Shown here piece after piece: positions 739 to 32,156 of a stretch of DNA of 62,072 nucleotides; position 1 is the stretch's first letter; each line of letters starts with the position of its first letter. Both the position numbers and the translations under genes were made by a program. The stretch lies in NCBI GenBank assembly GCA_964475285.1, contig CAYYWB010000002.1, positions 1 through 62,072 of the forward strand. Direction: 5' to 3'. The notes beneath the pieces were generated by a model. That model was not told where the DNA came from, did no database searches, and was given only the letters and a program-made list of their open reading frames with translations. The stretch is from an uncultured Bifidobacteriaceae bacterium (GTDB lineage Bacteria > Verrucomicrobiota > Verrucomicrobiia > Limisphaerales > UBA11358).

Positions 739-1311
739 ATGACGAAAAGAAAAACGACAACCACGGGTTTTTCAAGAATCAGCGGGCACAATGGCAGGCC
801 ATCCACCACGCTTCCCACCGGCTCTCCGCTACTGTCCAGAGATTGTCTGCCCCACCCATTCCTCTGGTCAGCGTTGCTGGCCGGCCTGATGTTTGTCTGC
901 GGCTGTCAAACAAACACAACAAATCTGTTCACCGCTGCTGGTTCCGGCTGGCACATCCAGCAGGGCCAGGCGCTTTGGCGTCCGCAACACGGCCTGCCGG
1001 AATTCGGCGGCGACCTCGTGCTTGCCAGCGATGACGCCGGACGCTGCCTGATTCAATTCGACAAAACGCCGATGGCCATTCTTTTCGCGCAGACCACCTC
1101 GAACCGCTGGCTGATAAAATTTCCGCAACGGCAAATGAGTTTCAGCGGGCGCGGGCCGGGGCCGACGCGTTTTAGCTGGCTATATCTGCCGACGGCGCTG
1201 GCCGGAAAACCGCTGCCGAAACCGCTTCATTTTGAGCGCAAGCCGGACGGCGGCTGGCGGCTGGAAAATTCCAGCACGGGCGAAACCCTGGAGGGCTTTC
1301 TTTCGCCGTGA
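739..1311 (+). CDS. lipoprotein of unknown function, first gene of the cluster operon
   Basis: The internal ATG at 739 gives a signal peptide ending in the lipobox-like LMFVCGC. GTGA overlap with the next gene. Its position next to the MMPL exporter recalls DUF3261-type lipoproteins of aryl-polyene loci (inference only). Confidence 0.6.
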   Translation: MTKRKTTTTGFSRISGHNGRPSTTLPTGSPLLSRDCLPHPFLWSALLAGLMFVCGCQTNTTNLFTAAGSGWHIQQGQALWRPQHGLPEFGGDLVLASDDAGRCLIQFDKTPMAILFAQTTSNRWLIKFPQRQMSFSGRGPGPTRFSWLYLPTALAGKPLPKPLHFERKPDGGWRLENSSTGETLEGFLSP

Positions 1312-4300
1312 GTTCGTTCTTGAAACGCTGGTGGTGGGCGCTGCTCGCCGTGGCCGTCTGCCTCGGCCTCTGGCGGCTGCGCTTTGACGTGGACATCCTC
1401 GACCTGCTGCCGCCGGACGAGCCGACCGTTCAAGGCCTGAAACTTTACCAGCAGCATTTCACGAATGCCCGCGAACTCATTGTCACCCTCCGCGCGCCTG
1501 ATTCCGACACTGCCGAGAAATTGGCGGACGAGCTGGCGGCGCATTTGCGGCAGCAAACCAATCTCGTTGCCGAAGTGACGTGGCAGCCGCCGTGGATGGA
1601 ACGGCCGGATCAACTGGGCGAACTGCTCGGCTGGCTGTGGTTCAACCAGCCGCCCGGAGATTTTTCCGCGCTGACCAACCGGCTCGCTCCCGGTCAGCTC
1701 AAGCCGGTTCTGGACGAGACGCGCGAAATGCTCGCCACTTCGATGTCGCCGATGGACCTGGCGCGCCGTTCGTTCGACCCGTTCAATCTGCTGACGATGC
1801 CCGCGCTGACCAACATCAGCGGCATTTCCATGGATCAGGGCAACCAGATGTTCGCTTCCACCGATGGAAAATACCGGCTGCTTTACGTCCAATCCGCCGT
1901 GGATCTGACCAGTTACCGTTCGTGTGAAATCTGGTTAAAGGCGATTCACGCCGTCGTCGCTGATTTGCAAACCGGTTCATCAAAAGACGACTGGAAAAAT
2001 GTCGTCGTCCGCTACACTGGTCGGCCGGTTTTCGTGGAAGAAATCGCCACGAGCATGCAACGCGACATGAGCCATTCAGTGGGCGCGACCTCCATCATCA
2101 TCGCCCTGCTGTTCTGGCTGACGCACCGGCGCTGGCTGCCGATGTTGTGGTTGCTGGCGTTGCTGATGCTGATTTTGGGCGCGACGCTGGCGCTGGGCGG
2201 GCTGGTGCTGGGAACGATCAGTGTGGTGGCATTGGGTTTCGCCGCCGTGCTGCTGGGATTGGCGGTGGATTATGCCGTCGTCCATTATCAGGAAGCGCTG
2301 GCATATCCGCAAATGACCGTGCCGGAAATCCGCCGGGCGATTGCGCCGAGCATCTTGTGGGCGGGCATCACGACAATGAGCGCGTTCCTGGTTCTGAACC
2401 TCGGCGGCCTGCCCGGCCTCGGCCAGCTCGGCTCGCTCGTGGCCATCGGCATCGGCGTGTCGGCGCTGGTGATGGTGATGATTTATCTGCCACCGCTGTT
2501 TCCCGACCGCCGCAAACCGCGGCCGAACCAAACGCCGTTCCGCTGGCGGAATTATTTCTTCGCGCCGGAGGAGCCGCCGGTGGCTGAAATTTCATCCGTT
2601 GGAAAAACTTCTCAACACGCCGCGTTTTTGTTGACCGGTTTAATTTTTTTGAGCGCGTGCGCCGTGTTGTGCTTTCAACGGCCGGGACTGGATCGAAGTG
2701 GAAACGCCCTGCAACCGCAGCACGGCGAGGCGCAGACGACGCTGGATGAAATGACCGTCGAACTCGGCCTGCCGCCGCAACCGCTCTGGCTGATTGTTCC
2801 CGGACGCGACGAGGCCGAAGTTTTTCAAAGGCTCACCAAAGCCGAAGAGTTGCTGAATGGCGCAGTGACGAATCATCTCATCGGTCGTTACCTGCTGCCA
2901 GACACGCTTTGGCCGCGCGCCGAATTTCAGTCGGCCAACCGCGCGACTGCGGCGGTCTTGGGCGGAAAAGGTCCGCTGCTGCGCGAAGCCGCGCTGAATG
3001 CGGGCTTCAACACCAACGCGCTGGTGTTGACGGAGGAACTGGTGCGAACATGGTCGCGCGCCGGTGAAAGCAAGTCGGTAATCTGGCCGACCAATAACGT
3101 CAGCCAGTGGTTATTGAAACGATTCGTCGCGCGCACTTCGGACGAATGCCTGGTGATGGGTTTGATTTATCCCGCGACCAACAAAGTGAACGCGGCGGAG
3201 CTGACAGCCTTGTCAAAGAATCTCGCGCAAAATCACGCGCTGCTGTCCGGCTGGGAATTGCTCGGCAACGCGACCTTGAAACGTGTGCAGTCAAAAATGT
3301 GGCAGGTCGTGACGCCGATGGTCATGCTCGTGCTGCTCTCGCTCTGGTTCGCTTTTCGCCGGGCAACGGAAATTCTGCTCGGCGTGGCGGTGTTGTGTTT
3401 GAGCGGATTTTGTCTGCTGGCAATAATGGCGCTGGCCGGCTGGACCTGGAATTTGATGAACCTGATGGCGGTGCCGCTGATGCTCGGCACCGGCGTGGAT
3501 TACACGCTGTTCATCCAGCTCGCCTTCCGCCGGCACGGCGGCAATCTCGTTGCCGTCCGGCGTTCCGTCGGGCGGGCGCTGATGTTGTGCGGCGGCACGG
3601 CGGTGGCCGGATTTGGCTCGCTCGCTTTTTCCAGCAATCTGGGCATGGCCAGCCTCGGCAAGGTGTGCGCCGTGGGCATCGGTGCCAATATGCTGATTTC
3701 AGTTTTTCTCCTGCCCGCGTGGTGGCGGTTGTTAAGTCCAAAGTCCAAAGTCCAAAGTCTAGGGTCGGAAAGTGCCGGATCGAAAGGGAGCGGAACATCC
3801 GCCCGCGCAAAGCTGCCCGCATTTTATCGTGCCGGTTTGTGGCGGCTCGGCTTGACCGTCGTGCGGGTTTTGCCGGCGGGACTGGTGAAGGGATTTGCCA
3901 TGGTCATGGCCGAATTTTACTGGCTGTTTCAACGCCGCCGCCGCGAAGTGGTGGTGAGGAATTTCCTGCCCGTGTTTGCCGGTGACCGTGCGGCCGCGAC
4001 AAAAGCCGCCCGCACGGCACATCGAAAATTCGCCGCGAAGCTGGTGGATTTATGGCGCGTCGAATCCGGCGAGCCGGTGCGCAACTGGCTGACGGATCCA
4101 CGCGGGTTGGAGATCATCCACGCCGCCCGGCGACGCGGACACGGCACGCTGTTCATCACGCTGCATCTTGGCAATTGGGAGCATGGCGGACTATTGCTGA
4201 ATCAGCACGGCATCCGGCTGACGGTTCTGACGCAGGCCGAACCCGACGACGGCCTGACCGATATGCGCAAGGCGGCGCGGGCGCGCTACGGCGTGGACAC

Positions 4301-4685
4301 GCTGATCATCGGCGAGGACAGTTTTGCTTTTGTGGAAGTCATCAAACAACTTCAGGCCGGCGCGGATCTGGCGGTATCGCTGGATCGGCCGCCGGAGCGT
4401 GGCGGAGTGCCTGTGGAATTTTTCGGGCATCCGTTCGAGGCGTCGCTGGCGGCGGCGGAACTGGCCCGCGCGTCGGGCTGTGCGTTAATTGGCGTGACGA
4501 TCGTCCGCCGGCCCGATGGTTATGCCGTGAAAGTGCTGCCGGAGTTCACTTATGACCGCAAAGCTTTGGGCAGCCGCGAAGCCCGCAGGGAATTGACGCA
4601 ACAAATCCTGCGTGCATTCGAGCCGGAAATCCGCAAAAATATGGACCAATGGTATCAATTCACGCCGATATGGCCGCGCCAATAG
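1308..4685 (+). CDS. fusion protein: MMPL/RND-like predicted exporter (N-terminal ~800 aa) plus LpxL/HtrB-type lysophospholipid/lipid A acyltransferase (C-terminal ~300 aa)
   Basis: Two hydrophobic 5-6 helix bundles separated by large soluble regions, which is the MMPL architecture. The C-terminal part carries HLGNWE (the HxxxxD/E acyltransferase motif of LpxL-family enzymes). Confidence 0.85.
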   Translation: MSSFLKRWWWALLAVAVCLGLWRLRFDVDILDLLPPDEPTVQGLKLYQQHFTNARELIVTLRAPDSDTAEKLADELAAHLRQQTNLVAEVTWQPPWMERPDQLGELLGWLWFNQPPGDFSALTNRLAPGQLKPVLDETREMLATSMSPMDLARRSFDPFNLLTMPALTNISGISMDQGNQMFASTDGKYRLLYVQSAVDLTSYRSCEIWLKAIHAVVADLQTGSSKDDWKNVVVRYTGRPVFVEEIATSMQRDMSHSVGATSIIIALLFWLTHRRWLPMLWLLALLMLILGATLALGGLVLGTISVVALGFAAVLLGLAVDYAVVHYQEALAYPQMTVPEIRRAIAPSILWAGITTMSAFLVLNLGGLPGLGQLGSLVAIGIGVSALVMVMIYLPPLFPDRRKPRPNQTPFRWRNYFFAPEEPPVAEISSVGKTSQHAAFLLTGLIFLSACAVLCFQRPGLDRSGNALQPQHGEAQTTLDEMTVELGLPPQPLWLIVPGRDEAEVFQRLTKAEELLNGAVTNHLIGRYLLPDTLWPRAEFQSANRATAAVLGGKGPLLREAALNAGFNTNALVLTEELVRTWSRAGESKSVIWPTNNVSQWLLKRFVARTSDECLVMGLIYPATNKVNAAELTALSKNLAQNHALLSGWELLGNATLKRVQSKMWQVVTPMVMLVLLSLWFAFRRATEILLGVAVLCLSGFCLLAIMALAGWTWNLMNLMAVPLMLGTGVDYTLFIQLAFRRHGGNLVAVRRSVGRALMLCGGTAVAGFGSLAFSSNLGMASLGKVCAVGIGANMLISVFLLPAWWRLLSPKSKVQSLGSESAGSKGSGTSARAKLPAFYRAGLWRLGLTVVRVLPAGLVKGFAMVMAEFYWLFQRRRREVVVRNFLPVFAGDRAAATKAARTAHRKFAAKLVDLWRVESGEPVRNWLTDPRGLEIIHAARRRGHGTLFITLHLGNWEHGGLLLNQHGIRLTVLTQAEPDDGLTDMRKAARARYGVDTLIIGEDSFAFVEVIKQLQAGADLAVSLDRPPERGGVPVEFFGHPFEASLAAAELARASGCALIGVTIVRRPDGYAVKVLPEFTYDRKALGSREARRELTQQILRAFEPEIRKNMDQWYQFTPIWPRQ
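3734..3759 (+). repeat. tandem heptamer AAGTCCA x3.7 at the exporter/acyltransferase domain junction
   Basis: aagtcca aagtcca aagtcca aagtc read directly from the sequence. It encodes the linker SPKSKVQSL. Confidence 0.9.
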
Positions 4686-4695
4686 CATCTGTTCG

Positions 4696-4774
4696 TAATC
4701 TTAATCGTCCTCTTAATCTTAATCTCCGCACCACGACGAAAATGATTAGGATGAAGAGCATGATTATGATTAAG
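4696..4774 (+). promoter_or_regulatory. long imperfect hairpin spanning the candidate start codons of the LolA-like gene
   Basis: Left arm taatcttaatcgtcctcttaatcttaatc (4696-4724) pairs with right arm gattaggatgaagagcatgattatgattaag (4744-4774). The ATGs at 4742, 4751, 4760 and 4766 lie at or inside the right arm (4744-4774); 4742 overlaps its 5' edge. Confidence 0.5.
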
Positions 4775-5437
4775 AAAGCGTTGCTCGCTGCGGCTGCCTG
4801 TTGTCTGGCCGTCTCGGTTGCTTCCGCCGCCGATTACGACGCGCAGTTCAACCGCTGGTTTCAAGTGCAAACGAATTTGCAGAGTTGGTCCGCCGATTTC
4901 ACCCAGACCCGTTCGCTCAAGGTGCTGGCCCAGCCGCTGGTGTCCGCCGGCAAAGTCTGGGTGAAGCCGGGTGAATTCCGATGGGAACTCGGCCAGCCGG
5001 CGCAAACCATCGTGCTCCGCCGGCCGGATCAACTGCTCATCGTTTATCCGCAGCTCAAGCGGGCGGAGAAATATCCCCTCGACGGCGTTCCGTCCGGCCC
5101 GATGAAGGACGCGCTGGCGCTGCTGGACGCCAGCCTGCCCCGCGACCGGGCGACGATGGAGGCGCATTTTCGCCTGTTGTCGGCCGCGGAAACGAACTCG
5201 ATTCTGCAAATGACGCTCCAGCCCCGGAGCGATTCGGCCCGTAAATTGATCGGTGAAATAGTCATCGGTTTTCACACCAACGATTTCACCATCGCCGCCA
5301 CGGAAATGAAATTCGCCGACGGTTCCAGCCTGCGGAACGATTTCACCAACGTGATGCTGAACCAGCCGATGGATCCGAAATTGTTCGAGGTGGAATTGCC
5401 GCCGGACTGCACCGTGGTTGAACCGTTGAAGCCATGA
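4766..5437 (+). CDS. LolA-like outer-membrane lipoprotein carrier family protein (secreted)
   Basis: Signal peptide MIKKALLAAAACCLAVSVASA. The FTQTRSLKVLAQPLVSAGKVWVKPGEFRWE pattern is typical of LolA-fold proteins. The start could also be 4742, 4751 or 4760. Confidence 0.7.
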   Translation: MIKKALLAAAACCLAVSVASAADYDAQFNRWFQVQTNLQSWSADFTQTRSLKVLAQPLVSAGKVWVKPGEFRWELGQPAQTIVLRRPDQLLIVYPQLKRAEKYPLDGVPSGPMKDALALLDASLPRDRATMEAHFRLLSAAETNSILQMTLQPRSDSARKLIGEIVIGFHTNDFTIAATEMKFADGSSLRNDFTNVMLNQPMDPKLFEVELPPDCTVVEPLKP

Positions 5438-5880
5438 GCTCCTCGCCCGACATTCTGCTGCTAGTCATGCGCTCTCTGCCGCACGGCCCGGAATTTCGTT
5501 TCGTGGACCGGATGGTAAGCCTCACGCCCGGTGTGCAAGGCGTGGGTGAATACCGTGTGCGCGGTGACGAGTATTATTTGCGCGGGCATCTGCCGGGCGA
5601 ACCGATCTTTCCCGGCGTGCTGCTCGTGGAAGCCGGCGCGCAAGTGGCCGGAGTGGTGGCGCAGGAAGATCCGCTAAATCCATCCCTGCCACGGTTGAAA
5701 CTGACCGCGTTGCGTGCCGTCAAAATTCTCGGCTCGGCCAGGCCCGGCGAAACCCTGCGAATCGAAGCGGTCATCACCGGTCGGTTGGGTTCCTTGATTC
5801 AGGCGGAAGTTTCCGCGTTCATCGCGGGCACAAAAGTATTATCGGCGGAGCTCACCTTGAGCGGCACTGCGAAAATATGA
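5434..5880 (+). CDS. FabA/FabZ-like hotdog-fold 3-hydroxyacyl-ACP dehydratase
   Basis: GHLPGEPIFPGVLLVEAGAQ matches the FabZ catalytic His/Glu region. ATGA overlap with the upstream gene. Confidence 0.8.
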   Translation: MSSSPDILLLVMRSLPHGPEFRFVDRMVSLTPGVQGVGEYRVRGDEYYLRGHLPGEPIFPGVLLVEAGAQVAGVVAQEDPLNPSLPRLKLTALRAVKILGSARPGETLRIEAVITGRLGSLIQAEVSAFIAGTKVLSAELTLSGTAKI

Positions 5881-6272
5881 TGACGCATATTCAATTTGGA
5901 ACCCTCTTGGGCGTTTATTTGATTTTGGTCGTAATTAATGTCAAGATATCTGGCTTTTCCAAACAGAAAGATCATGCAGAGAAATATTTCATTGCGAAGT
6001 CAAAACAGTTTTTAGTCACCTACGCAACTTTCAACTTGGTAATGGTTTTGGTTTTCATCGTGGGATTCGTCGGAATGTTCGTTCTTTGGAGTTTCTCTCC
6101 GGCCCTGTTTTTTTTGGGTGTAGCGACAAAGAATTTGGATCCGTTGTTGGTTCCGCCCCGATTGCGTTCGGGCTGGAGCGAATTCTTAGGCAGCGTCGAA
6201 ATTTTTTTTGAAGGTGCGCTCTTCGTTGCCGTCTTTTTTGGCCCAGCTCGGCATTTGTTCTTCCAACCATGA
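5877..6272 (+). CDS. AT-rich small integral membrane protein, unknown function
   Basis: 131 aa with 3-4 hydrophobic helices. ATGA overlaps at both ends. Visibly AT-rich: 22/60 G+C in 5881-5940 versus 36/60 in 5461-5520. Confidence 0.5.
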   Translation: MMTHIQFGTLLGVYLILVVINVKISGFSKQKDHAEKYFIAKSKQFLVTYATFNLVMVLVFIVGFVGMFVLWSFSPALFFLGVATKNLDPLLVPPRLRSGWSEFLGSVEIFFEGALFVAVFFGPARHLFFQP

Positions 6273-7003
6273 CGGCGCCGACGGATCAACCCACGCGCAG
6301 CTTCCGATTCGAGCGCGACACCTTCGCGTTTCCGCATGAGTTGGTGTGGAAATACCATTTTGATCCGGTGACGGGGGCAATAACCACCTTCAAATCGGAT
6401 CCGCCTCCCACTTATTATCATCGTTGTTTCGTGATGACGCGTTCGACGCGGCAATTTTTTTATCACGCCCGTTTCGAACCGGAGCTGCCACCGGTGGATG
6501 ATCAAACTAATCGGAACCTCGTCCGCGCGATGGTCTCGCGCAATCCGCGCCGCGCGTGCGCGGAGCCGGAACGGCTCGTGATTCCCGGCTACGACGGGCT
6601 GCGTTCGTTCAGTCAGGCGCACGAATCGCTGCTCAAGGCGGAATTGGGCGGCCCGTGGCAATCTTATTTTCTGCGAAGCCACTGGCGCATGATTTTCCGG
6701 GTCTCCGGACGGTTTCAGGAAAAGATGGCGGAAAAATTGATACGGTCCCTCCAGCAGCGCGGCGTGTCGCTCGCGCATTTGTTCCGTTTTCCCCGCATCA
6801 CCATCAATCACGGAATCGTGCTGTATGGCTTCACCGAGTCGGAGCAAAATATTGAATTTGAAGCCTACGATCCGAACATTCCCGAACATCCGGTGAAACT
6901 GGTTTATGAAAAAAAGCGACGGGTGTTCACCTTCGCGCCCAACAGCTACTGGGGTGGCGGCGTGTTAAGCGTCACCGAAAATTTTTGCAACTGGCCGTAT
7001 TGA
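6269..7003 (+). CDS. hypothetical protein with a papain-fold (C39/BtrH-N-like) Cys-His-Asp signature
   Basis: Ordered HRCFVMTRS ... ITINHGIVLYGF ... EAYDPNIP resembles the Cys / H-x-V-V-L / DP arrangement of C39-like peptidases and acyltransferases. Judged by eye only. Confidence 0.5.
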   Translation: MTAPTDQPTRSFRFERDTFAFPHELVWKYHFDPVTGAITTFKSDPPPTYYHRCFVMTRSTRQFFYHARFEPELPPVDDQTNRNLVRAMVSRNPRRACAEPERLVIPGYDGLRSFSQAHESLLKAELGGPWQSYFLRSHWRMIFRVSGRFQEKMAEKLIRSLQQRGVSLAHLFRFPRITINHGIVLYGFTESEQNIEFEAYDPNIPEHPVKLVYEKKRRVFTFAPNSYWGGGVLSVTENFCNWPY

Positions 7004-7015
7004 TTGATAATTTAC

Positions 7016-13505: not shown

Positions 13506-13520
13506 AATGGAGAAATTAAA

Positions 13521-14156: not shown

Positions 14157-14184
14157 CCCCGCTGAAATTGCGGGCGAACTTCAT

Positions 14185-24661: not shown

Positions 24662-24776
24662 GGGCGTTCTGTTTAGCTTCAATCGCGCCGGCAATCGAGA
24701 CAAAAAACCGGCGGCGGTTGCATTGTTTTCTTTCGCACGCATTTGATTGGGATATGATTGCCGCCGCCAAATTGTC

Positions 24777-26018: not shown

Positions 26019-27058
26019 GCCGGATTTTTGTCGCGGGAATTGGCGCGGTATCTCCCGCCGGCTGGAAAGTCGCGGCCTTGCGCGGCGCGCTGGACAAAGG
26101 CGAGCCGCTTCCGGTTCAAGCGCTGCCGCGGCCCGGCTGGGAAAAACCACTCCTGGCGCGGCTGGTGCCGAACCCGCCAGTGCGTCCGGAATTTTTGGCG
26201 CATCCACGGCTGCGACGAACCAGCCCAATCACGCACTACGCCGCATCAGCCGCGCTCGAAGCTGCGGCCGGCCTGCGCTCGAAGCCTGACGCGAATAATT
26301 TCCGGCTGGGCATCGTCGTCTGCCTGCAATCCGGCTGCGTGCAATACTCCTGCCGTTTTTACGACGAGACATTGAAGAATCCGGCCACGGCCAGTCCGTT
26401 GGTTTTCCCCGAAACGGTTTATGCCGCGCCAGCGAGCCATGTCGCCGCGCTGCTGGAAAATGTGGCGCTCGCTTATTCGCTAGTCGGCGATCCGTCCGCG
26501 TTTTTGCAAGGCGTCGCGCTCGGCGTCCAATGGCTGGAAGAAAATCGCGTGGATGCCTGTCTCGTCATCGGCGCGGAAGAAACCAACTGGATCACGGCGG
26601 ATGCGCTGTGGCATCTGGACCGGCGCGCCACCGTCACCGCCGGTGCCGGCGCTTTGTGCCTGTGCCGCGATCCAAAATTATCGGCCGGCATCGAACTGGC
26701 GGTCATCACCGACGCGCACACATTTTCCGCGCGGCAAAGTCGGACGCAAGCGGCGCAAGCCATGCGCCGCCAACTCGGCAAAAATTCCCCCGGTGAACTG
26801 CTTTGCGACGGCATCGGGGACAGCCCGCGAACCGGCGCGGCGGAACTTGCGGCGTGGCGCGATTGGGCCGGGCCGCGCGTCAGCCCGAAACGCATTTTGG
26901 GCGAAGGATTGATGGCCGCCGCCGCCTGGCAATGCGTGGCCGCGTGCGACGCGGTGGCCGGCGGAAAATTCGCCGCCGCCAATGCCAGCCTGGTTGGCTC
27001 CAATCAGCAGGCCATCGGCGCGCGATTCACGGCAGTGGCACAGGCATCTTGCCTGTGA
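26009..27058 (+). CDS. ketosynthase-like chain-length-factor type protein (no active-site Cys)
   Basis: KS-fold N-terminus IFVAGIGAVSPAG, but GDPSAF sits where ACASG would be. 10-nt overlap with the KS gene. Confidence 0.7.
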   Translation: MGMSRIFVAGIGAVSPAGWKVAALRGALDKGEPLPVQALPRPGWEKPLLARLVPNPPVRPEFLAHPRLRRTSPITHYAASAALEAAAGLRSKPDANNFRLGIVVCLQSGCVQYSCRFYDETLKNPATASPLVFPETVYAAPASHVAALLENVALAYSLVGDPSAFLQGVALGVQWLEENRVDACLVIGAEETNWITADALWHLDRRATVTAGAGALCLCRDPKLSAGIELAVITDAHTFSARQSRTQAAQAMRRQLGKNSPGELLCDGIGDSPRTGAAELAAWRDWAGPRVSPKRILGEGLMAAAAWQCVAACDAVAGGKFAAANASLVGSNQQAIGARFTAVAQASCL

Positions 27059-27154: not shown

Positions 27155-27886
27155 ATGAGCGAGCGTGTCATTTTGATCACCGGAGCCAATGGCGGTCTGG
27201 GCCGGGCCATCGCGCACAATTTTCTCCAAGAGTCACCCGCCACCATCGTCTGGCTCGGCGTTCGCTCCGGGCGTGAACACGCCGACAAACTCGCGCGGGA
27301 AAATCCCGACCGCTGTTTCTGCGTCACGTTGGATGTCACCGCGCCGGAATCCTGGCAGGCGGCAGTCAAAGAAATTTTGTCGCGGCACCAGCGCCTCGAC
27401 GTGCTGGTCAACAACGCCGGCGGCCACGAAGATGCGTTGCTCGCCACCATGCCGCCGGAATCCTGGCGGCGAATTCTGGCGGCAAATCTCGACGGCGTTT
27501 TCCACGGTTGTCAGGCTGTGTTGCCGACGATGATCAGCCAGCGCGGCGGACGAATTGTCAATGTGGCTTCATTAAGCGCGCTGCTCGCGCCGGCGGGACA
27601 GGCGAATTACGCGGCGGCCAAGGCCGGAGTGGTTGCGTTGACCCAATCGCTCGCGAAGGAAGTGGCCCGCATCGGCATCACGGTCAATGCCGTGTGTCCC
27701 GGTTTCGTGGAGACGGAAGCGCTGGCCAATCTGGCCGGAGAGGAACGAAAAGCAGCGCAAATGAAAATTCCCATGCGCCGGTTTGGCCGGCCCGAGGAAG
27801 TGGCGGCGGCGGTTCGTTTTCTGGCAAGCGCTGAAGCCAGTTACATCACCGGCTCGGTTCTCAAAGTTGACGGCGGGATTTTATAA
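27155..27886 (+). CDS. SDR-family 3-oxoacyl-ACP reductase (FabG-like)
   Basis: ILITGANGGLGRAIA (TGxxxGxG), NNAG, and the S...YAAAKAG (YxxxK) catalytic motif. Confidence 0.85.
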   Translation: MSERVILITGANGGLGRAIAHNFLQESPATIVWLGVRSGREHADKLARENPDRCFCVTLDVTAPESWQAAVKEILSRHQRLDVLVNNAGGHEDALLATMPPESWRRILAANLDGVFHGCQAVLPTMISQRGGRIVNVASLSALLAPAGQANYAAAKAGVVALTQSLAKEVARIGITVNAVCPGFVETEALANLAGEERKAAQMKIPMRRFGRPEEVAAAVRFLASAEASYITGSVLKVDGGIL

Positions 27887-27898: not shown

Positions 27899-29473
27899 AT
27901 GGCTGCTGAAATGATGCCAGTCGAAGACCAGCCGCGCGGCACGCCGCCGTTGCCCGAACCTGCTCCCGGGCCTGCGCCCGGAAAAGTCATCATTATCGGT
28001 GCCGGCATCGCCGGTCTTTCGTGCGGCTGCTATCTCCAGATGAACGGCATCCAGACGGAAATTCTGGAGGCGAGCCTGCTGCCGGGTGGATTATGCACGG
28101 CATGGCACCGCGGGCCGTATGTTTTTGACGGCTGCCTCCGCTGGTTGATGGGAGCACATCCGCCATCGGCCTTCCACCAGGTCTGGATGGAACTGGGCGC
28201 GATCGCCGGGCGAAAAGTTTTTGTCCACGACGAAATACTCCGGATCGAAGGCGCCGGCGGCAAAACCCTCTCCGTGCCCGCCGACCTGGACAAACTCGCC
28301 CGCGAGTTCAAACGCATCGCGCCCGAAGACAGCGGCCTGATTGACAAGCTGGTGCGGGACGCGCGCCGCTGCGCGCCGCTGGAACCGCCGCTGGAAAACG
28401 CGGTGGAATTGATGACGCTTTTCGAGAAAATGAAACTGGGGCTGCGTTATCTGCCAATGGTGCCAGCCATTTTCCGCTATAAAAATGTCCCGATCACCGC
28501 CTATGTCTCCCGCTACAAAAATGAATTCTTGCGTGAGGCGCTGCAGCTCATCGTCGGCAGCGAAGACATGTCGGCATTGGTACTGGTGATGCTGCTGGCG
28601 TTCCGAACACGAAAAAACACCGGCTTCGTCGCCGGCGGCTCGTGGGATTTTGCGATGGCCATCGCGGACCGTTACACCCGGCTGGGCGGCACCGCGAGGT
28701 ATAAAACCAGGGTGACTTCGATAAAAGTTGAAAACAACCGGGCCGTGGGCGTGGAATGCGCCGATGGAACGGTCGTTCCCGCTTCAATTGTCGTCTCATG
28801 CGCGGACGGCTACACGACGATTTTCAAGATGCTGGACGGCCGTTTTGCAGACAAAAAAATCCGCGACCTCTACGAGAATTGCAAAACGTTTCCGGCCATC
28901 ATCCAGGTTTCGCTGGGCATCAGGACAATTTTTCCCGAAGCGCCGCACACGCTCAACCTGCCGCTGCCCCAACCGCTACGCGTGGACGACCAGACAAAAC
29001 ACGACCGTCTGGAAGTCGAAACCTTTGGTTCCGAGTCGGCGCTCTGCCCGGAAGGCACCACCGTCATGACGGTCAGGCTGCCGACCAGTTACGAATTCTG
29101 GACGGAATTAAAAAAGAACGACCCCGGCCGTTACCGCGCCGAAAAAGGCAGAGTCATCCGGGAAATCATCGCCATCCTTGAAAAACGGTTTCCCGGCCTG
29201 GCGCAGCACATCGAGCGTTCCGACATCGCGACGCCCGCCACGTTTGTGCGTTACACCGGCAACTGGCAGGGCAGCTACGAAGGCTGGCTGCCGACGCCGC
29301 GCATCCTGGGCCGCCGCATTTCCTGCACGCTGCCGGGGCTTAAAGATTTCTACATGGCCGGCCATTGGGTGGTCGCGGGCGGCGGCCTGCCGTCGGCGGC
29401 GATTTCCGGCCGGTATGTCGCGCAAATGATCTGCGCCCGGAGCGGAAGAGTTTTTGCGGCCACCAGACCGTAA
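27899..29473 (+). CDS. phytoene-desaturase-like (CrtI-family) FAD-dependent oxidoreductase
   Basis: KVIIIGAGIAGLSCGCYLQMNGIQTEILEA N-terminal FAD motif. 524 aa with the C-terminal GHWVVAGGGLPSA typical of amine-oxidase/CrtI-fold enzymes. Confidence 0.7.
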   Translation: MAAEMMPVEDQPRGTPPLPEPAPGPAPGKVIIIGAGIAGLSCGCYLQMNGIQTEILEASLLPGGLCTAWHRGPYVFDGCLRWLMGAHPPSAFHQVWMELGAIAGRKVFVHDEILRIEGAGGKTLSVPADLDKLAREFKRIAPEDSGLIDKLVRDARRCAPLEPPLENAVELMTLFEKMKLGLRYLPMVPAIFRYKNVPITAYVSRYKNEFLREALQLIVGSEDMSALVLVMLLAFRTRKNTGFVAGGSWDFAMAIADRYTRLGGTARYKTRVTSIKVENNRAVGVECADGTVVPASIVVSCADGYTTIFKMLDGRFADKKIRDLYENCKTFPAIIQVSLGIRTIFPEAPHTLNLPLPQPLRVDDQTKHDRLEVETFGSESALCPEGTTVMTVRLPTSYEFWTELKKNDPGRYRAEKGRVIREIIAILEKRFPGLAQHIERSDIATPATFVRYTGNWQGSYEGWLPTPRILGRRISCTLPGLKDFYMAGHWVVAGGGLPSAAISGRYVAQMICARSGRVFAATRP

Positions 29474-29486: not shown

Positions 29487-31286
29487 TCAGTATGCCGCCG
29501 GACGCCCGCGGCCATTCGTGTAAAACTCGAACTCGAAGAGGAAATCCTTTTTCTCCGGACCTCGAATCCATGCCGCAATCCGATATTCCGTTTGTGGTTC
29601 CAGGACCAAATCGGGCGGACAGGCATAAATCCTTTCGCAGGCGCATTTGTCGGGAAACGAAATTGGATCAAGGAAAGTCAGATGCACTCCGTGCGTTTCC
29701 ACCGGATTGTGATTTCCCCGTTCGATTGACGCGCGGGCAAAATGCGGAATTTTTTCAATCGTCACCTCGAGCGGAGCCTCCATGCCCGGTTGAGCCAGTT
29801 GCGGCGACCAAATCCGCAGGAAAACATCACCCGCCGACAGCAATTTATAATCCCGGTCGAACGGGTCGCGCACGATTCCGGCCAGCGCCTGTTCCTTTTG
29901 AGTTACCCATTCGGCGCCATTTTCCTCCGCGCGATAATCGCGCATCCCCGGAAAGCCGTCAAACTGCCGGGCCGCCCGGTCGCTCGAAGTGTCGCGGGTC
30001 GGAGCAAAGTTGCTCAATACAATTCCGTCCGAATTGATGTCGTCCAGCGCGCCGTGAGTGCTGCCGTAGTTCTCAAGCCGGCTGCCTTCTTTGACCAGCC
30101 ATCCGGCATTGACATGCTGATTGTCCAGACTGATGAGAATGGTCGCGGGATTGAGAGTGATGCTCGTGAGGCCGCGGACAATTCGCTCCAGCGCCAGCGG
30201 ATAACGGTTGGTCATGGTCGCGACCATCCAGTCGTCGGACGTGGCAAAACCATCGGTGCCAAGCAGGTTCTTTTGCTGGAGCGCCGCAACCACCGGACGA
30301 TAATTGAGCGGGTCGCCTTCTTCGGTTGCATACCGGAAGGCGTTCTTCGCGGGATTCCATTCAATCATGGCCCGTTCGCCCTTCGAGTTCATGACCAGAA
30401 AGCGATTGGTCTGAAGCCGCGCCGCCAGCACGTCCACGCCTTCCAGATGCGCGATCTGCCGTGCGAGCCTTTCGGTTTCGGCGGGCGCATTGTGGATTTC
30501 AACCCAGTCCTCAATTCCGGCCGTCGGCAGGACAACGTCATTTGAATTCACAATGGACTGTGTGATTTTGTATCCGGCTTTTTCCAGAAAAGCTTGAATC
30601 TTGACGCGATGGCCGGCACCGGCGTGGTTGTGTCCGTGATCCGAGAGCATCAGGATTTGCAAATCGCGCCCCTCTTCCGTTTTGTAACGGGCGCGCAAAT
30701 CCTGAAGTTGTTTGTCCAGCAGGCAGAGCAGGGAAAAAATATCGCGGTCCAGATGCTGGGCATCGTCCGATGCGCGGAGGTAGGCATAGTAATCGGCGTT
30801 TGTGCTCCGCGTGTCCCAAAAGTTTTTGACCATGGCGTGCATTTCGTATTCGAATGTTTGGGCTGAATAAATGTAACCCATTGAACGGAGAAACCCGCTT
30901 TCCACCTGCCAGTCCATTTGCCGCTCGTGCTCCACGGTGGTGGTGACACCGTTGTGGGAAATGAGCGCATTTGCCGCGGCGCTGAAATAAGTGCGCTGAT
31001 AACCGGGCAGCGGGCGATTCCCAAAAATGTCGGTCCACGCGACGTCGCTGGTGGACGGAAACGTCGAGATCATGCGGCTGGCTGGAAAATATCCCTCGCT
31101 GGAACTGAAGGCCTGGCGATGCAACACACTTCCCCAAATGTTTGTGTAGGTGACGCCGGCTTGCAATGCCGTCATGTCACGGTAGGCGATTCCATCCAGC
31201 GCGATGACCAGCCGCCGGGGGAGCGCGACGCCAGTTGAAGGCAGGACCTGAAATGCCAGCAAAACGAGAAAGACAAACCGATTCAT
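29487..31286 (-). CDS. secreted alkaline-phosphatase-superfamily phosphodiesterase/nucleotide pyrophosphatase-like protein
   Basis: Signal peptide. LVIALDGIAYRD, FPSTSDVAW and MLSDHGHNH metal-ligand/nucleophile motifs. Confidence 0.65.
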   Translation of the reverse strand: MNRFVFLVLLAFQVLPSTGVALPRRLVIALDGIAYRDMTALQAGVTYTNIWGSVLHRQAFSSSEGYFPASRMISTFPSTSDVAWTDIFGNRPLPGYQRTYFSAAANALISHNGVTTTVEHERQMDWQVESGFLRSMGYIYSAQTFEYEMHAMVKNFWDTRSTNADYYAYLRASDDAQHLDRDIFSLLCLLDKQLQDLRARYKTEEGRDLQILMLSDHGHNHAGAGHRVKIQAFLEKAGYKITQSIVNSNDVVLPTAGIEDWVEIHNAPAETERLARQIAHLEGVDVLAARLQTNRFLVMNSKGERAMIEWNPAKNAFRYATEEGDPLNYRPVVAALQQKNLLGTDGFATSDDWMVATMTNRYPLALERIVRGLTSITLNPATILISLDNQHVNAGWLVKEGSRLENYGSTHGALDDINSDGIVLSNFAPTRDTSSDRAARQFDGFPGMRDYRAEENGAEWVTQKEQALAGIVRDPFDRDYKLLSAGDVFLRIWSPQLAQPGMEAPLEVTIEKIPHFARASIERGNHNPVETHGVHLTFLDPISFPDKCACERIYACPPDLVLEPQTEYRIAAWIRGPEKKDFLFEFEFYTNGRGRPAAY

Positions 31287-31480: not shown

Positions 31481-31861
31481 TTGATGAAACCAAGAGACAT
31501 ATTTGGCCTGGCGATCCGGCTTCTGGGCCTTTTTTTCCTCTATCTTGGCTTGAGAGCCGTGACACCGCTGCTCGACTTGGGCGCAATCGAGACGGCCGGC
31601 AGAAGCGACCTCATCAACGCGATTTTACCCATTGTCTTCAACCTCGCCGTCGCTTGGTGGCTGCTGGGCGGCGGACTGTTGATGCGACGGGCATATCCCG
31701 ATACGTCGAAAATTTCGGGCCATTCCCATCCGCAGGCGGAGCGGGCAATACCGGCGACCAGTTCAACGGAGTCGCAAGAATTGACAGGCATGGCCAGAGC
31801 CGAAAAAAAGCTCGCGTCGCTGGTGGAAAAACCGAAGAATGACCGCGCAACACAACCTTGA
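31481..31861 (+). CDS. small membrane protein, unknown function
   Basis: Two hydrophobic helices (LAIRLLGLFFLYLGL, ILPIVFNLAVAWWLLGGGLL) followed by a hydrophilic tail. Confidence 0.45.
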   Translation: MMKPRDIFGLAIRLLGLFFLYLGLRAVTPLLDLGAIETAGRSDLINAILPIVFNLAVAWWLLGGGLLMRRAYPDTSKISGHSHPQAERAIPATSSTESQELTGMARAEKKLASLVEKPKNDRATQP

Positions 31862-31883
31862 ACAGCCCCCGTCCAATTTTGTA

Positions 31884-32156
31884 ATGGATAACACAGCAGC
31901 GATCAAACAGGACATCAAGCGATTGATGGTCGAGAACCTCATGCTCCAAATCAGCGCCGACGAAATCGGCGACGACCAGCCGTTGTTCGGCCCCGGCAGC
32001 GTGGGTTTGGATTCAGTGGATGCCCTGCAACTGGTGGTGGCCCTGGACAAGACGTATGGACTCAAGATTGCCGATCCCGAAGTTGCGCGACAAGTCTTGC
32101 AAACAGTCAACACCATCGCCTCGGCAATTCAAGAACACCAGTCCCCGCCCAAATAA
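31884..32156 (+). CDS. acyl carrier protein
   Basis: 90 aa from MDNTAAIKQD with GLDSVDALQLV (DSx attachment motif). Confidence 0.8.
   Translation: MDNTAAIKQDIKRLMVENLMLQISADEIGDDQPLFGPGSVGLDSVDALQLVVALDKTYGLKIADPEVARQVLQTVNTIASAIQEHQSPPK

Follow-up and report, generated by a model that had tools for sequence, protein, structure and literature searches.

A type III polyketide synthase cassette nested in a ladderane-like/aryl-polyene-like gene cluster of a Limisphaerales bacterium

The left part of the window, by which we mean the whole analysed stretch of 62,072 nucleotides from an uncultured peat-soil Limisphaerales (Verrucomicrobiota) bacterium, carries putative acyl-chain assembly and export genes together with a type III polyketide synthase (T3PKS). 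Do these form one hybrid, or two gene sets that happen to be neighbours? A sequence-only reading had proposed a hybrid of an aryl-polyene/flexirubin-type half and a phenolic-lipid operon. The hybrid is real and facultative. As had been claimed, genes of the two sets lie interleaved on the DNA, and a synteny check found this interleaving of backbone and cassette in many related contigs. A mosaic architecture is very probable: gene content and synteny point to an orphan 'ladderane-like'/aryl-polyene-like type II backbone, with a three-gene cassette inserted into its halogenase-to-adenylase operon.

Backbone genes and their relatives

Pfam and NCBIfam searches largely upheld the gene content read from the sequence, and many 4-bp start/stop overlaps between ORFs support the claim of translationally coupled operons. 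The cluster (plus strand unless stated) is bounded on the left by a tRNA-Glu(TTC) gene at 430..504 (Rfam 68 bits; ARAGORN), missed in the earlier reading. It begins with a small lipoprotein-like protein (835..1311) that has a lipobox-like ...MFVCGC and no match in Pfam or NCBIfam; conservation of the ORF 514-1311 is limited to its C-terminal ~155 aa (residues ~108-265 are 58-86% conserved by tblastn in L006, L007, L011, L013 and L020), and its stop codon overlaps the start of the next gene. That gene (1308..4685) does encode an MMPL/RND (HpnN-like) transporter with an LpxL/lysophospholipid-type acyltransferase fused to its C-terminal end (PF03176, 95 bits; PF03279, Lip_A_acyltrans, 78 bits; HpnN, 170 bits, under cutoff). 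The LolA-like periplasmic carrier (4649..5437; PF03548, 52 bits) and FabZ/FabA-like dehydratase (5434..5880; PF07977, 59.5 bits) were likewise confirmed, the L005 orthologue of the latter having a precomputed ApeI-like match. A lineage-specific hydrophobic ORF of 131 aa (5877..6272; low GC3 of 0.52; 4-bp overlap at each side) has no homologue in any fetched locus. The protein at 6269..7003, with invariant Cys53, His138, His181 and Asp201 in the alignment, had been assigned a papain fold, which we could not confirm: its AF2 model has pLDDT 58, a structure search gave no fold match, its relatives carry DUF8321/DUF8322, and all 1384 homologues are named 'hypothetical'. A conserved small membrane protein (~125 aa; 7091..~7470, minus strand), previously overlooked, recurs at the same position in over 20 related loci, where tblastn finds it at 45-80% identity.

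Both predicted acyl carrier proteins were found, ACP1 at 7681..7956 and ACP2 at 31839..32156, the right boundary (PF00550, 26 and 32 bits); a 51% identical ACP2 orthologue adjoins FabG in L007. The 'condensation-like' acyltransferase (7975..9309) has no sequence match in Pfam, NCBIfam or PDB, and its assignment as a free-standing condensation-fold (CAT superfamily) enzyme was borne out by its NHTLLDARG motif and its fold (AF2 pLDDT 69, pTM 0.72; best Foldseek matches to NRPS C domains, E ~1e-15, TM 0.55-0.65). None of its 367 homologues has a functional name or Pfam domain, and only two carry an organism label, in both cases Verrucomicrobia. The B12-binding radical SAM enzyme of 'lipid biosynthesis/ladderane' type (rSAM, 9306..10718), also correctly read, belongs to a family with 1038 cluster representatives (50% identity) at E<=1e-30. 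It is followed by an FAD-dependent oxidoreductase (10667..11992, the start of ~10667 being adopted from the L001 gene call; FAD_oxidored, PF12831, 275 bits) and adenylating enzyme 1 (AMP1, 12051..13484), a FadD-like acyl-CoA/ACP ligase (PF00501, 210 bits). The rSAM is kept at 67-85% identity in 26 species-level loci, all except one labelled Limisphaerales, Verrucomicrobiota or Verrucomicrobiae, or without a label, and the block from the lipoprotein through MMPL/AT, LolA, FabZ, DUF8321, ACP, condensation-like enzyme, rSAM and FAD oxidoreductase to AMP1 is conserved among them.

A type II restriction-modification pair, missed in the earlier reading, is an insertion that splits the cluster and lies outside the pathway. 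It spans 13491..15453 with GC3 of 0.52-0.55, comprising a type II REase-like gene (13491..14156; PADLOC REase_II, 33 bits) and a minus-strand N6-adenine MTase (14185..15453; PADLOC MTase_II, 174.5 bits), and is missing in most relatives and found in L045. Further right, between halogenase and GT2, stands a WG-repeat protein (22891..23898; PF14903, 341 bits; 59-76% identity in relatives), another gene that had gone unnoticed.

The polyprenyl-phosphate-sugar-synthase-like GT2 glycosyltransferase (23924..24742; PF00535, 76 bits; AglJ/PpgS-like profiles, 95-100 bits, under cutoff), earlier placed on the plus strand, is in fact encoded on the minus strand and diverges from the ketosynthase (KS) gene. 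The FabF-like KS (24777..26018; PF00109/PF02801) has an intact Cys-His-His triad; its partner, a chain-length-factor-like protein (CLF, 26015..27058), is not only Cys-less, as had been noted, but by pairwise alignment has lost the whole triad (Cys to Phe/Leu, His to Asp, His to Glu). With a KS of 342 bits against a fabF cutoff of 494 and an inactive partner beside it, the KS/CLF/FabG/ACP genes are distinct from housekeeping fatty acid synthesis. The FabG-like ketoreductase (27155..27886; adh_short_C2, 206 bits; TIGR01830, 257 bits against a cutoff of 298) and the CrtI/amine-oxidase-family, 'phytoene-desaturase-like' flavoprotein (27899..29473; PF01593, 58 bits; crtI_fam, 115 bits against 238) are as predicted. 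Beyond them lies a minus-strand gene for a phosphodiesterase/alkaline-phosphatase-superfamily protein (29487..31286; PF01663, weak at 21.5 bits; 57-67% identity in L007, L012, L014, L019, L041 and L095), absent from the earlier account. The plus strand thus has one adenylase and one non-CrtI flavoprotein, not the two and three once counted, and the whole window has two and five; antisense shadow ORFs may have inflated the earlier counts.

Profile scores and gene order suggest that the backbone is better placed with orphan 'ladderane-like' FAS-II/PKS clusters than with the canonical aryl-polyene/flexirubin loci to which its assembly half had been assigned. Its gene set matches the SAM/PCL/OX/GT/PD synteny described by Rattray et al. 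(PMC2649909), and its rSAM comes near the TIGR04072 cutoff (344.8 against 360 bits). The KS is nearer FabF (1j3n, 273 bits) than ApeO (170 bits), and both flexirubin profiles fall under cutoff (LolA2_flexi, 62 against 125 bits for the LolA-like carrier; FlxB, 213 against 340). The second-best solved relative of the KS is 9s5h_B (256 bits), and the sole solved-structure match of the CLF is 9s5h_C (E 0.003), so that the two match different chains, B and C, of one heteromeric KS entry. Only the export and anchoring genes are aryl-polyene-like.

The minus-strand operon and its cassette

The minus-strand gene content stood in full, the methyltransferase on weak matches. The flavin-dependent halogenase (21406..22638; PF04820) has WxWxIP, and its GxGxxG motif sits 5' of the first canonical start codon, in the upstream frame; its best solved relatives are 8zop (142 bits), then CndH, CmlS, Bmp2 and PltA. 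The aromatic-ring hydroxylase, a class A flavoprotein of 521 aa (19823..21388; PF01494, 275 bits; PRK06184, 328 bits), is an accessory that was found in no locus without the cassette and in only part of those with it (present in L003, L034, L038, L040 and L042; missing from L041, L050 and L095). The cassette itself consists of the T3PKS (18703..19758; Chal_sti_synt_N/C and FAE1 domains), a SAM methyltransferase (17994..18695; Methyltransf_23/25 at ~22 bits, below cutoff; PRK06202, 40 bits) and a small FAD monooxygenase (16942..17997; PF01494, 36 bits). The T3PKS retains its Cys-His-Asn triad when aligned to PKS18, which with PKS11 is its best solved relative (both taking long-chain acyl starters; distant, ~100 bits), and its homologues bear the JGI label 'alkylresorcinol/alkylpyrone synthase'. 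The methyltransferase is syntenic with the T3PKS everywhere, and the monooxygenase accompanies it in stand-alone loci.

Adenylating enzyme 2 (15562..16839), short at 425 aa (PF00501, PF13193), is always directly downstream of the cassette; this same-strand arrangement is found in the window, with spacings from a 4-bp overlap up to 102 bp, and in ~15 other loci. Among solved structures, adenylase 2 comes closest to a fatty-acyl-CoA synthase and feruloyl-CoA synthetase, then to benzoate-CoA ligase and DhbE (~63-75 bits). The sequence-only reading had counted halogenase and adenylase in the T3PKS operon. However, adenylase 2 occurs without a T3PKS in L009, L011, L012, L014 and L019, and in L009 and L011 only 128 bp separate it from the halogenase. 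Because the two are adjacent in sibling species that lack the cassette, both are backbone genes.

The cassette also exists alone. In 13 stand-alone loci the T3PKS is accompanied by the methyltransferase and/or flavoprotein (all three in 11), and the other 25 cluster proteins are absent at E<=1e-3, the one exception being a partial FabG-like match where L065 ends. In four of the 13, flanks of 6 kb or more are available at both sides. In neighbour-joining trees, both without support values, the 31 T3PKSs from hybrid contexts form one clade with all stand-alone T3PKSs outside, while on the AMP1 tree the T3PKS-positive L030 and L005 branch away from the main T3PKS-positive clade, which includes the T3PKS-negative L029. 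The cassette is carried by 2 of 17 assessable species representatives. Its patchy distribution on the AMP1 tree implies that it is dispensable and was lost or transferred more than once. Had the halves been conserved independently and never co-occurred, the proposed hybrid would have been in doubt; they are independently conserved, and they do co-occur, in one sub-lineage only.

Proposed product and coupling

We suggest that the backbone makes an acyl chain, ACP-bound and probably unsaturated, whose building and modification would involve KS, CLF, FabG-like ketoreductase, FabZ-like dehydratase, two ACPs, two adenylating enzymes, the B12-radical-SAM enzyme, the PF12831 and CrtI-like flavoproteins, condensation-fold acyltransferase, halogenase and GT2. 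A glycolipid or phospholipid would anchor the chain, and delivery to the outer membrane would be by the lipoprotein, the MMPL-LpxL-type acyltransferase fusion and the LolA-like carrier. A phenolic-lipid function of the cassette is likely, judging by its homologies: as in srsABC/hidABC-type operons, the T3PKS would add three malonyl-CoA to a long acyl thioester by condensation, giving an alkylresorcinol or alkylpyrone-type phenolic lipid, then O-methylated, hydroxylated and maybe halogenated. No ammonia-lyase, chorismatase or DarA/DarB-type gene was found among the selected window ORFs scanned with Pfam, in keeping with the earlier claim that local aromatic-starter genes are lacking.

Coupling is the least certain part of the explanation. 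The likeliest option, to which arsABCD and the cylindrocyclophane pathway offer analogies, is that the cluster's own ACP- or CoA-bound chain supplies the T3PKS starter, but our confidence in it is low and well below even. The cassette would in that case be an optional branch or off-loading module, yielding the cluster lipid in a resorcinol- or quinol-headed form. Backbone and cassette being merely co-expressed is another option; stand-alone cassettes evidently use the general acyl pool, so coupling to the cluster chain is not required. The sequence-only reading had the condensation-like enzyme ester-link the T3PKS phenol to the ACP-bound chain. Such a flexirubin-like ester is possible, but the enzyme is found in every cluster variant, with or without T3PKS, and is therefore not dedicated to resorcinol esterification. 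As a whole, a mosaic ladderane-like/aryl-polyene-like backbone with a nested phenolic-lipid cassette is our best explanation, held tentatively and at somewhat less than even confidence.

Comparison with known systems

The combination had been thought to lack a characterised precedent. Uncharacterised regions of antiSMASH-level 'T3PKS-arylpolyene' type had, however, been listed before in Bacteroidota (PMC6139392, PMC8513620). Both building blocks, backbone and cassette, are of known kinds. Alkylresorcinols are made by hidABC and by the planctomycetal mtr-fdo-t3pks operon (PMC10896814), and the cassette has the same gene composition as these.

Gene content of the window

ORFs were listed, GC content by codon position was checked, and plausible genes were scanned against Pfam and NCBIfam; the gene inventory of the earlier sequence-only reading proved mostly right. 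The plus-strand series opens with a short lipoprotein-like ORF, followed by an MMPL transporter fused to a Lip_A_acyltrans domain (1308-4685; PF03176, PF03279), a LolA-like protein (PF03548), a FabZ/FabA-like dehydratase with FAS-II model matches (FabZ, 74 bits), a DUF8321/DUF8322-type protein (6269-7003; the domains are known from its relatives, and the local libraries gave no match), an acyl carrier protein (ACP1, 7681-7956), a 444-aa condensation-fold protein with no family match by sequence (7975-9309), a B12-binding radical SAM enzyme (rSAM), and a PF12831 flavoprotein (an FAD oxidoreductase) that precedes the AMP-binding enzyme ending this first block (adenylase 1, 12051-13484). Past an interruption, a second plus-strand block encodes a ketosynthase (KS), its partner (CLF), a FabG-like reductase and a CrtI/amine-oxidase-like flavoprotein, and ACP2 lies at 31839-32156 on the same strand. 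Between 22.6 and 15.6 kb, in descending order, the minus strand carries a flavin-dependent halogenase, an aromatic-ring hydroxylase of 521 aa, a type III polyketide synthase (T3PKS, 18703-19758), a methyltransferase (17994-18695), a small FAD monooxygenase (16942-17997) and a short adenylase (adenylase 2, 15562-16839), with spacings that range from a 4-bp overlap up to 102 bp. The GT2 protein (PF00535), previously put on the plus strand, is on the minus strand and divergent from the KS. Where two adenylases and three flavoproteins had been counted, the plus strand has a single adenylase and, the CrtI-like protein aside, a single flavoprotein. Not mentioned before were a WG-repeat protein, a phosphodiesterase-superfamily protein and, at the left edge, a tRNA-Glu. 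The absence of ammonia-lyase, XanB2 and DarA/DarB genes was upheld, in that no TAL/ammonia-lyase, XanB2-type chorismatase, chorismate lyase or DarA/DarB was present among the selected ORFs scanned with Pfam across the 62-kb window; such genes may lie elsewhere in the genome.

The catalytic motifs of both synthases are intact. The KS retains its Cys-His-His triad (ACASG, HGTGT and GHLLG), and its neighbor has Phe/Leu, Asp and Glu at the aligned positions; because these residues are replaced, the neighbor is a catalytically dead partner and was correctly called a Cys-less CLF. In the T3PKS, which contains the Chal_sti_synt domains, GQGCGAAL, FHPGG and YGNMSS align to C175, H313 and N346 of PKS18. 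Its nearest solved relatives are PKS18 and PKS11, both long-chain-acyl enzymes, at only about 100 bits; its homologues carry the source name "alkylresorcinol/alkylpyrone synthase", and an identical protein was found on JGI and ENA metagenome contigs. Family matches of the neighboring methyltransferase were all below threshold.

Sequence comparison of the condensation-like protein with the PDB returned only noise. The fold came instead from structure comparison, and the earlier description is supported by an AlphaFold2 model (pLDDT 69, pTM 0.72) that matches NRPS condensation domains at E ~1e-15. The predicted condensation-fold protein has NHTLLDARG where HHxxxDG is expected, and none of its 367 homologues has a functional name or a Pfam domain; the two that carry an organism label are Verrucomicrobia. 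The papain fold proposed for the 6269-7003 protein was not confirmed: its AlphaFold2 model has a pLDDT of 58, no PDB entry matched by sequence, and every Foldseek match had E >0.03 and a TM score of about 0.2. Cys53, His138, His181 and Asp201 are invariant in its alignment, which is suggestive only.

The halogenase contains WxWxIP, and its best solved match is PDB 8zop. Its FAD-binding GxGxxG motif (IKTVGIIGSGPSGATLA; window 22576-22650, minus strand) is in frame and lies 5' of the first ATG, GTG or TTG of ORF 21406-22575. There is no canonical start between the preceding stop and this motif, and ATC-AAA-AC is conserved at the upstream site in L003 and L005, two of the related loci that we fetched. 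Since the motif lies upstream of the canonical starts and the ATC-AAA-AC is conserved, the halogenase likely uses a non-canonical ATC or ATT start, and the 389-aa public gene calls are likely truncated at the N terminus.

Several smaller features surround these genes. The tRNA-Glu(TTC) (430-504) lies directly upstream of the first gene of the cluster, and the first ~107 codons of ORF 514-1311 are unconserved in relatives and probably not translated. A 131-aa hydrophobic ORF (5877-6272; GC3 0.52) overlaps the FabZ-like and DUF8321 genes on either side by 4 bp; no homologue of it was found in the 111 fetched loci, and the FabZ-like and DUF8321 genes of relatives are 18-50 bp apart. Between the DUF8321 and ACP1 genes, the minus strand encodes a membrane protein of about 125 aa without a family match (7091-~7470), which occupies the same position at 45-80% identity in more than 20 related loci. 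Three ORFs were rejected as genes: 7220-7681 (no family match, no homologue in related loci, and antisense to this conserved small membrane gene), 31285-31842 (no family match and no homologue in related loci) and 22765-23442 (no family match, overlapping the WG-repeat gene). The WG-repeat protein (22891-23898; PF14903, eight repeats) sits between the halogenase and the GT2 gene and is 59-76% identical in halogenase-containing variants. A convergent type II restriction-modification pair (13491-15453), inserted between the two adenylase genes, encodes a 221-aa REase-like protein and a 422-aa N6-adenine MTase (REase_II 33 bits and MTase_II 174.5 bits in PADLOC); its GC3 is low, and of the relatives only the metagenome locus L045 has the insertion, at 83-84% identity.

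An Rfam search of the window, covering riboswitches such as a cobalamin riboswitch near the rSAM gene, returned only the tRNA. Our promoter and terminator scan of 13.3-25 kb gave 20 terminator-like sites against 18.5 expected, which is the chance level, and one weak promoter-like site upstream of the halogenase that we do not count as evidence. The 32-62 kb region encodes BON, SLT, two-component, ABC-2/Wzt, sugar-transferase, MarC and MlaA-domain proteins. Within it, signalling genes are densely packed at 36805-55241: three HisKA_3 kinases, a LuxR-type response regulator, two more receiver proteins and a 904-aa multi-PAS hybrid kinase, with an ABC-2/Wzt exporter pair and a sugar transferase interspersed among them. 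A 733-aa protein with an MlaA (VacJ) lipoprotein domain is encoded at 56545-58746, 24 kb from the cluster, to which its link is hypothetical; for anammox bacteria, Rattray et al. (2009, PMC2649909) noted a VacJ-like gene within one of the lipid clusters.

The backbone and its relatives

A scan of species-representative genomes with the rSAM as single-protein query, the reach of which is Limisphaerales only, yielded 26 loci with rSAM identities of 67-85%. With a single exception, their titles name Limisphaerales, Verrucomicrobiota or Verrucomicrobiae or carry no label. Peat, bog and palsa samples are the source of many, SPRUCE and Stordalen being examples of peat sites with related metagenome-assembled genomes, and all related sequences used here are metagenomes or metagenome-assembled genomes. 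The 28 window proteins were compared with the related loci by tblastn, with present/absent thresholds of 40-55% identity plus coverage filters. One series is kept throughout the 26 loci, namely lipoprotein, MMPL/acyltransferase, LolA, FabZ, DUF8321, (small membrane protein), ACP, condensation-like protein, rSAM, FAD oxidoreductase and adenylase 1, while GT2, KS, CLF, FabG, the CrtI-like and phosphodiesterase-like proteins and adenylase 2 are retained yet shuffled among related loci. In several T3PKS-less relatives there is an additional radical SAM gene, a distant paralogue with a product 28-31% identical to the window rSAM; it has no counterpart in the window. It falls within the variable DUF8321-ACP1 stretch in L007 (7142-7969), L016 (7189-8088), L017 (6923-7750) and L019 (6522-7433), and about 4.5 kb upstream of ACP1 in L012 (839-1618).

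We place this backbone with the orphan ladderane-like clusters, on the strength of sequence matches and shared gene content. The best model for the rSAM is TIGR04072 (rSAM_ladder_B12, "lipid biosynthesis B12-binding/radical SAM protein"), at 344.8 bits against a cutoff of 360, with the next model, BzaD, at 172. Among solved structures, the KS scores 273 bits against Thermus thermophilus FabF, 256 against 9s5h chain B and 170 against ApeO (6qsp_A), and the sole match of the CLF at E<=0.01 is 9s5h chain C. The 9s5h entry is a heteromeric pair of FabF-like chains, of which the KS of the window matches one and the CLF the other; it may be the anammox amxFabF2/amxFabFmut heterodimer of bioRxiv 10.64898/2026.05.19.726425. 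A FabF-like KS beside a FabF homologue without the Cys-His-His triad is itself a ladderane-type feature, and the rest of the ladderane-type gene set, matched to its published description, is all in the window: a phytoene-desaturase-like flavoprotein, an oxidoreductase, a CoA-ligase-like enzyme, a glycosyltransferase, an ACP and FabZ.

These matches, together with the cutoffs missed by the flexirubin and FAS-II models, are why we assign the backbone to the ladderane-like group; it fails canonical aryl-polyene/flexirubin membership. The aryl-polyene/flexirubin half of the sequence-only reading thus stands for the export and anchoring genes, since MMPL, LolA-like, LpxL/LPLAT-type acyltransferase and GT2 are present, but not for the rest: the KS is nearer FabF and 9s5h than ApeO, the KS and CLF scores do not place the pair with ApeO/ApeC, and the flexirubin-specific NCBIfam models score well below cutoff (LolA2_flexi, 61.6 against 125 bits; FlxB, 213 against 340). 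Assignment of the KS, CLF, FabG and ACP genes to housekeeping fatty-acid synthesis, which that reading had named as a possible refutation, is not what we found. All FAS-II equivalog cutoffs are missed (fabF, 342 against 494; FabG TIGR01830, 257 against 298; FabZ, 74 against 113), and the KS partner is catalytically dead.

Distribution and history of the T3PKS cassette

The locus is a mosaic, and its T3PKS part is optional. Seventeen of the 26 species loci have at least 5 kb downstream of adenylase 1 and were therefore assessable; the T3PKS is present in two of them (L020 and L030). In the T3PKS-less L009 and L011 only 128 bp separate the halogenase from its neighbor, adenylase 2, and L007 has no halogenase, adenylase 2 or T3PKS. 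Halogenase and minus-strand adenylase had been counted with the T3PKS module, which these loci contradict, and the condensation-like enzyme, proposed as a linker to the resorcinol, is present at similar conservation in every T3PKS-less variant. Judging from this distribution, all three are backbone genes older than the cassette. The halogenase must then have a substrate in the T3PKS-less species, and the condensation-fold enzyme an acceptor other than a resorcinol.

A metagenome scan with the T3PKS gave 526 confirmed relatives, and we analyzed the context of the best 80. Among these 80, the copies at 74-100% identity with enough flank are embedded in the cluster, in the order T3PKS, methyltransferase, flavoprotein and adenylase 2, and are flanked on the opposite side by the halogenase, WG-repeat, GT2 and KS genes; the trio of T3PKS, methyltransferase and FAD oxidoreductase is conserved in the hybrid loci that extend far enough, and wherever enough downstream sequence is available (about 15 loci) adenylase 2 directly follows the cassette. 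Elsewhere the cassette is independent: also among the best 80, 13 copies at 64-75% T3PKS identity stand alone with the methyltransferase and/or the flavoprotein (all three genes in 11 of them). None of the other 25 cluster proteins was found at E<=1e-3 in these 13 loci, at least 6 kb of flank being available on both sides in four of them, save for a partial FabG-like match at the edge of one (L065). The two halves are thus conserved independently, as stand-alone cassettes and as T3PKS-less backbones, as the sequence-only reading had allowed; they also co-occur in relatives, so the hybrid is real and the further proviso, that they might never do so, does not hold.

In a simple neighbor-joining tree without support values, the 31 cluster-embedded T3PKSs form one clade, reaching down to about 74% identity, and the stand-alone copies all fall outside it. 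An adenylase-1 tree of the same simple kind puts most T3PKS-positive loci in one clade, with L030 and L005 apart and the T3PKS-negative L029 inside, and on this pattern we rejected a single gain of the cassette without loss. The placement of L030 and L005 differs between the two trees, which hints at transfer of the cassette, or recombination between cluster variants, within Limisphaerales. Our reading of these sequences is that a self-contained three-gene operon would have been captured once into the halogenase-to-adenylase operon of the backbone and was later retained, lost or moved among siblings. The only genes that co-vary with the T3PKS are the methyltransferase, the FAD monooxygenase and sometimes the aromatic hydroxylase, an extra gene in some loci, the window included; no co-varying acyltransferase or ligase was seen among the loci compared. 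On the nanopore-derived L005 contig (2605-4745), the GT2 and aromatic hydroxylase genes are each broken into short ORFs, the likely cause being assembly frameshifts and not pseudogenes.

Candidate products and comparison with known systems

Family knowledge suggests how such a pathway could run. The KS/CLF, ketoreductase, dehydratase, rSAM and two desaturase-like/oxidoreductase flavoproteins would build and modify an ACP-bound chain, and the adenylases would load a starter or reactivate an acid. The condensation-fold enzyme and the LpxL-type domain may transfer acyl groups, GT2 and the phosphodiesterase-like protein may build or trim a head group, and MMPL, LolA and the lipoprotein would take the product to the outer membrane. 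The cassette would act like srsABC, hidABC or the planctomycetal operon, which yields alkylresorcinols and derivatives (PMC10896814), and make alkylresorcinols and their methylated or hydroxylated derivatives. By analogy with arsABCD, the cylindrocyclophane pathway and Steely, the T3PKS might take its starter from the cluster's own acyl thioester, a real if somewhat improbable option. We suggest, as a tentative reading held with less than even confidence, that in a clade of peatland Verrucomicrobia the inserted T3PKS is chemically integrated with the ladderane-like pathway: it would cap the cluster's own modified or unsaturated chain (possibly aryl-primed and halogenated) with a resorcinol or quinol, or its resorcinol would be esterified to the chain. 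Either route would give a novel class of phenolic lipid or pigment in the outer membrane, convergent with flexirubins and cyst alkylresorcinols. Coupling of the two chemistries is the least certain part of this mechanism; beyond the couplings weighed here, the remaining probability goes to other arrangements.

A chemically independent cassette is an alternative that we consider as probable as starter supply by the cluster. Co-located and co-transcribed with the backbone, it would make methylated or hydroxylated alkylresorcinols or alkylquinones from the general fatty-acyl pool, in the manner of its stand-alone relatives, and share only regulation and perhaps export. Near the stand-alone relatives there is no FAS, ACP or ligase gene of their own, neither an acyltransferase nor a ligase co-varies with the cassette, and the cassette is patchy among species (two of 17 assessable representatives). 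However, all 31 T3PKSs from cluster contexts fall in one clade, the constant position next to adenylase 2 in about 15 loci suggests selection for linkage, and in arsABCD and the cylindrocyclophane pathway a T3PKS clustered with FAS/PKS, ACP and ligase genes is functionally coupled to them. We consider less probable, and on the whole unlikely, the flexirubin-like ester originally proposed, in which a tailored T3PKS resorcinol would be joined to an ACP-bound (aryl)polyene acid by the condensation-fold enzyme or the LpxL-type acyltransferase and exported by MMPL/LolA. Flexirubin clusters do pair an aryl-polyene-like system with resorcinol genes; in the window, export and anchoring genes of aryl-polyene-like type are present, the condensation-fold protein with its NHxxxD motif adjoins an ACP gene, and DarA/DarB, TAL and XanB2 are absent among the scanned ORFs. 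Against this, the condensation-fold enzyme and the acyltransferase are similarly conserved in every T3PKS-less variant, so their native acceptor is not a resorcinol; the halogenase and adenylase 2 also occur without a T3PKS, the LolA2_flexi and FlxB cutoffs are missed, and a KS closer to FabF and 9s5h than to ApeO does not indicate an aryl-polyene chain. With the proposed linking elements being backbone genes, and no acyltransferase co-varying, such an ester is possible but unsupported.

In all hybrid loci that extend far enough, adenylase 2 is the next gene downstream of the cassette. This position would also fit an aryl-acid-CoA ligase supplying the T3PKS, in the way that 4CL supplies CHS/STS, to give a stilbene, chalcone or aryl-pyrone, and feruloyl-CoA synthetase, benzoate-CoA ligase and DhbE are among its best solved relatives. 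Those matches are weak (~63-75 bits) and mixed with fatty-acyl ligases, a fatty-acyl-CoA synthase being on top. Moreover, adenylase 2 is older than the cassette and found in T3PKS-less loci, no ligase accompanies the stand-alone cassettes, and the nearest solved T3PKSs use long-chain acyl starters, all of which makes this arrangement very improbable. Least probable of all, and hardly to be expected, is that the region encodes housekeeping fatty-acid synthesis or a true ladderane pathway with the T3PKS genes as mere neighbors. The KS, FabG and FabZ-like proteins do match FAS-II models and the rSAM comes near TIGR04072, but every equivalog cutoff is missed, the KS has its dead partner, and ladderanes are confined to anammox Planctomycetota, none being associated with look-alike clusters in other phyla (PMC2649909; PMC9902471).

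Both parts of the locus are of known kinds, the backbone uncharacterised and the cassette well studied, and we regard it as a credible, widespread orphan biosynthetic gene cluster whose evolutionary history is clear; it adds no new category, and its product chemistry is a prediction. For Aequorivita and Sphingobacterium, lists of antiSMASH-level regions include "T3PKS-arylpolyene" entries that were not followed up (PMC6139392, PMC8513620), and in the literature searched, which was not exhaustive, we saw neither this Limisphaerales cluster family nor the nesting of a T3PKS cassette in a cluster of ladderane-like type described. Ladderane-like and aryl-polyene-like clusters have repeatedly been flagged in Verrucomicrobiota, Desulfobacterota and other phyla, with a product known only from anammox bacteria; here a variant common in peat and bog metagenomes has an optional phenolic-lipid cassette nested in one of its backbone operons, and it is a possible handle on the products of such clusters. 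If the cassette uses the backbone chain, a chromophore and a possible Cl/Br isotope signature would make backbone chemistry far easier to detect by LC-MS, and the UV-active, halogen-tagged product would be the first tractable chemical read-out of ladderane-like clusters outside anammox bacteria. If the cassette is independent, the locus is a natural example of a mobile three-gene alkylresorcinol operon captured by the operon of another pathway and kept or lost among siblings. In addition, two unannotated protein families, the free-standing condensation-fold enzyme and the DUF8321/8322 protein, are tied to lipid assembly.

Rattray et al. (2009, PMC2649909) reported anammox FAS-like clusters that are syntenic with clusters of Desulfotalea, Geobacter and Pelobacter, their genes including radical SAM, phenylacetyl-CoA-ligase-like, oxidoreductase, glycosyltransferase and phytoene-dehydrogenase-like ones. 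Ladderane lipids have been linked to anammox Planctomycetota only, with none associated with the look-alikes of other phyla (PMC2649909; PMC9902471), and surveys give the antiSMASH "ladderane" label in Verrucomicrobiota and other phyla, and "arylpolyene" calls in Verrucomicrobiota, where their function is unknown (PMC8692599; PMC9902471). The window resembles ladderane-type clusters in its near-TIGR04072 rSAM, its FabF-like KS with a triad-less partner, its dedicated ACP and FabZ-like dehydratase and, going by published gene descriptions, its phytoene-desaturase-like flavoprotein, FAD oxidoreductase, CoA-ligase-like enzyme and GT2; as for the look-alikes, the only products known for the type are those of anammox bacteria. 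Unlike ladderane-type clusters, it adds the MMPL-acyltransferase fusion, LolA, lipoprotein, condensation-fold enzyme, DUF8321/8322 protein, halogenase and T3PKS cassette, and its rSAM is 15 bits short of the family cutoff.

With the ape, xanthomonadin and flexirubin clusters the window shares the export and anchoring logic of MMPL, LolA-like, LpxL/lysophospholipid-type acyltransferase and GT2, as well as KS/CLF, KR, DH, discrete ACPs and an adenylating enzyme; a halogenase is found also in xanthomonadin and chlorinated flexirubin clusters, and an embedded resorcinol module in flexirubin clusters. It differs from the ape type in a KS nearer FabF/9s5h than ApeO, in a CLF similar to solved 9s5h_C alone, and in having an rSAM, a PF12831 flavoprotein, a CrtI-like enzyme and a condensation-fold enzyme, which ape clusters lack. 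Conversely, the ape/flexirubin thioesterase, second ApeP-type DH, TAL, chorismate-derived starter gene and DarA/DarB are absent among its scanned ORFs, and its proteins fall below the flexirubin-specific NCBIfam cutoffs.

Like arsABCD (Azotobacter cyst lipids), the cylindrocyclophane pathway and Dictyostelium Steely, the window clusters a FAS/PKS system, carriers and acyl-activating enzymes with a T3PKS, which in those systems caps the chain with a resorcinol and in the window would do so, and the cylindrocyclophane pathway (CylI with the halogenase CylC) includes halogenation too. Those systems are type I FAS/PKS or fusions with experimentally proven coupling, whereas the window is type II and its coupling is one that we infer; its halogenase, unlike CylC, is flavin-dependent. 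By gene content, the trio is that of srsABC (Streptomyces griseus), hidABC (Cyanobium, hierridins), the planctomycetal mtr-fdo-t3pks operon (PMC10896814) and the mycobacterial polyketide-quinone operon, and the gene order T3PKS-MT-flavoprotein is that of srsABC. The methyltransferase, with its sub-threshold family matches, sets the window apart from srsABC and hidABC. As with srsABC-type operons, the cassette is free-standing in other metagenomic genomes; unlike srsABC and hidABC, the trio of the window is nested in the operon of another pathway, beside a halogenase, an extra aromatic hydroxylase and an adenylase.
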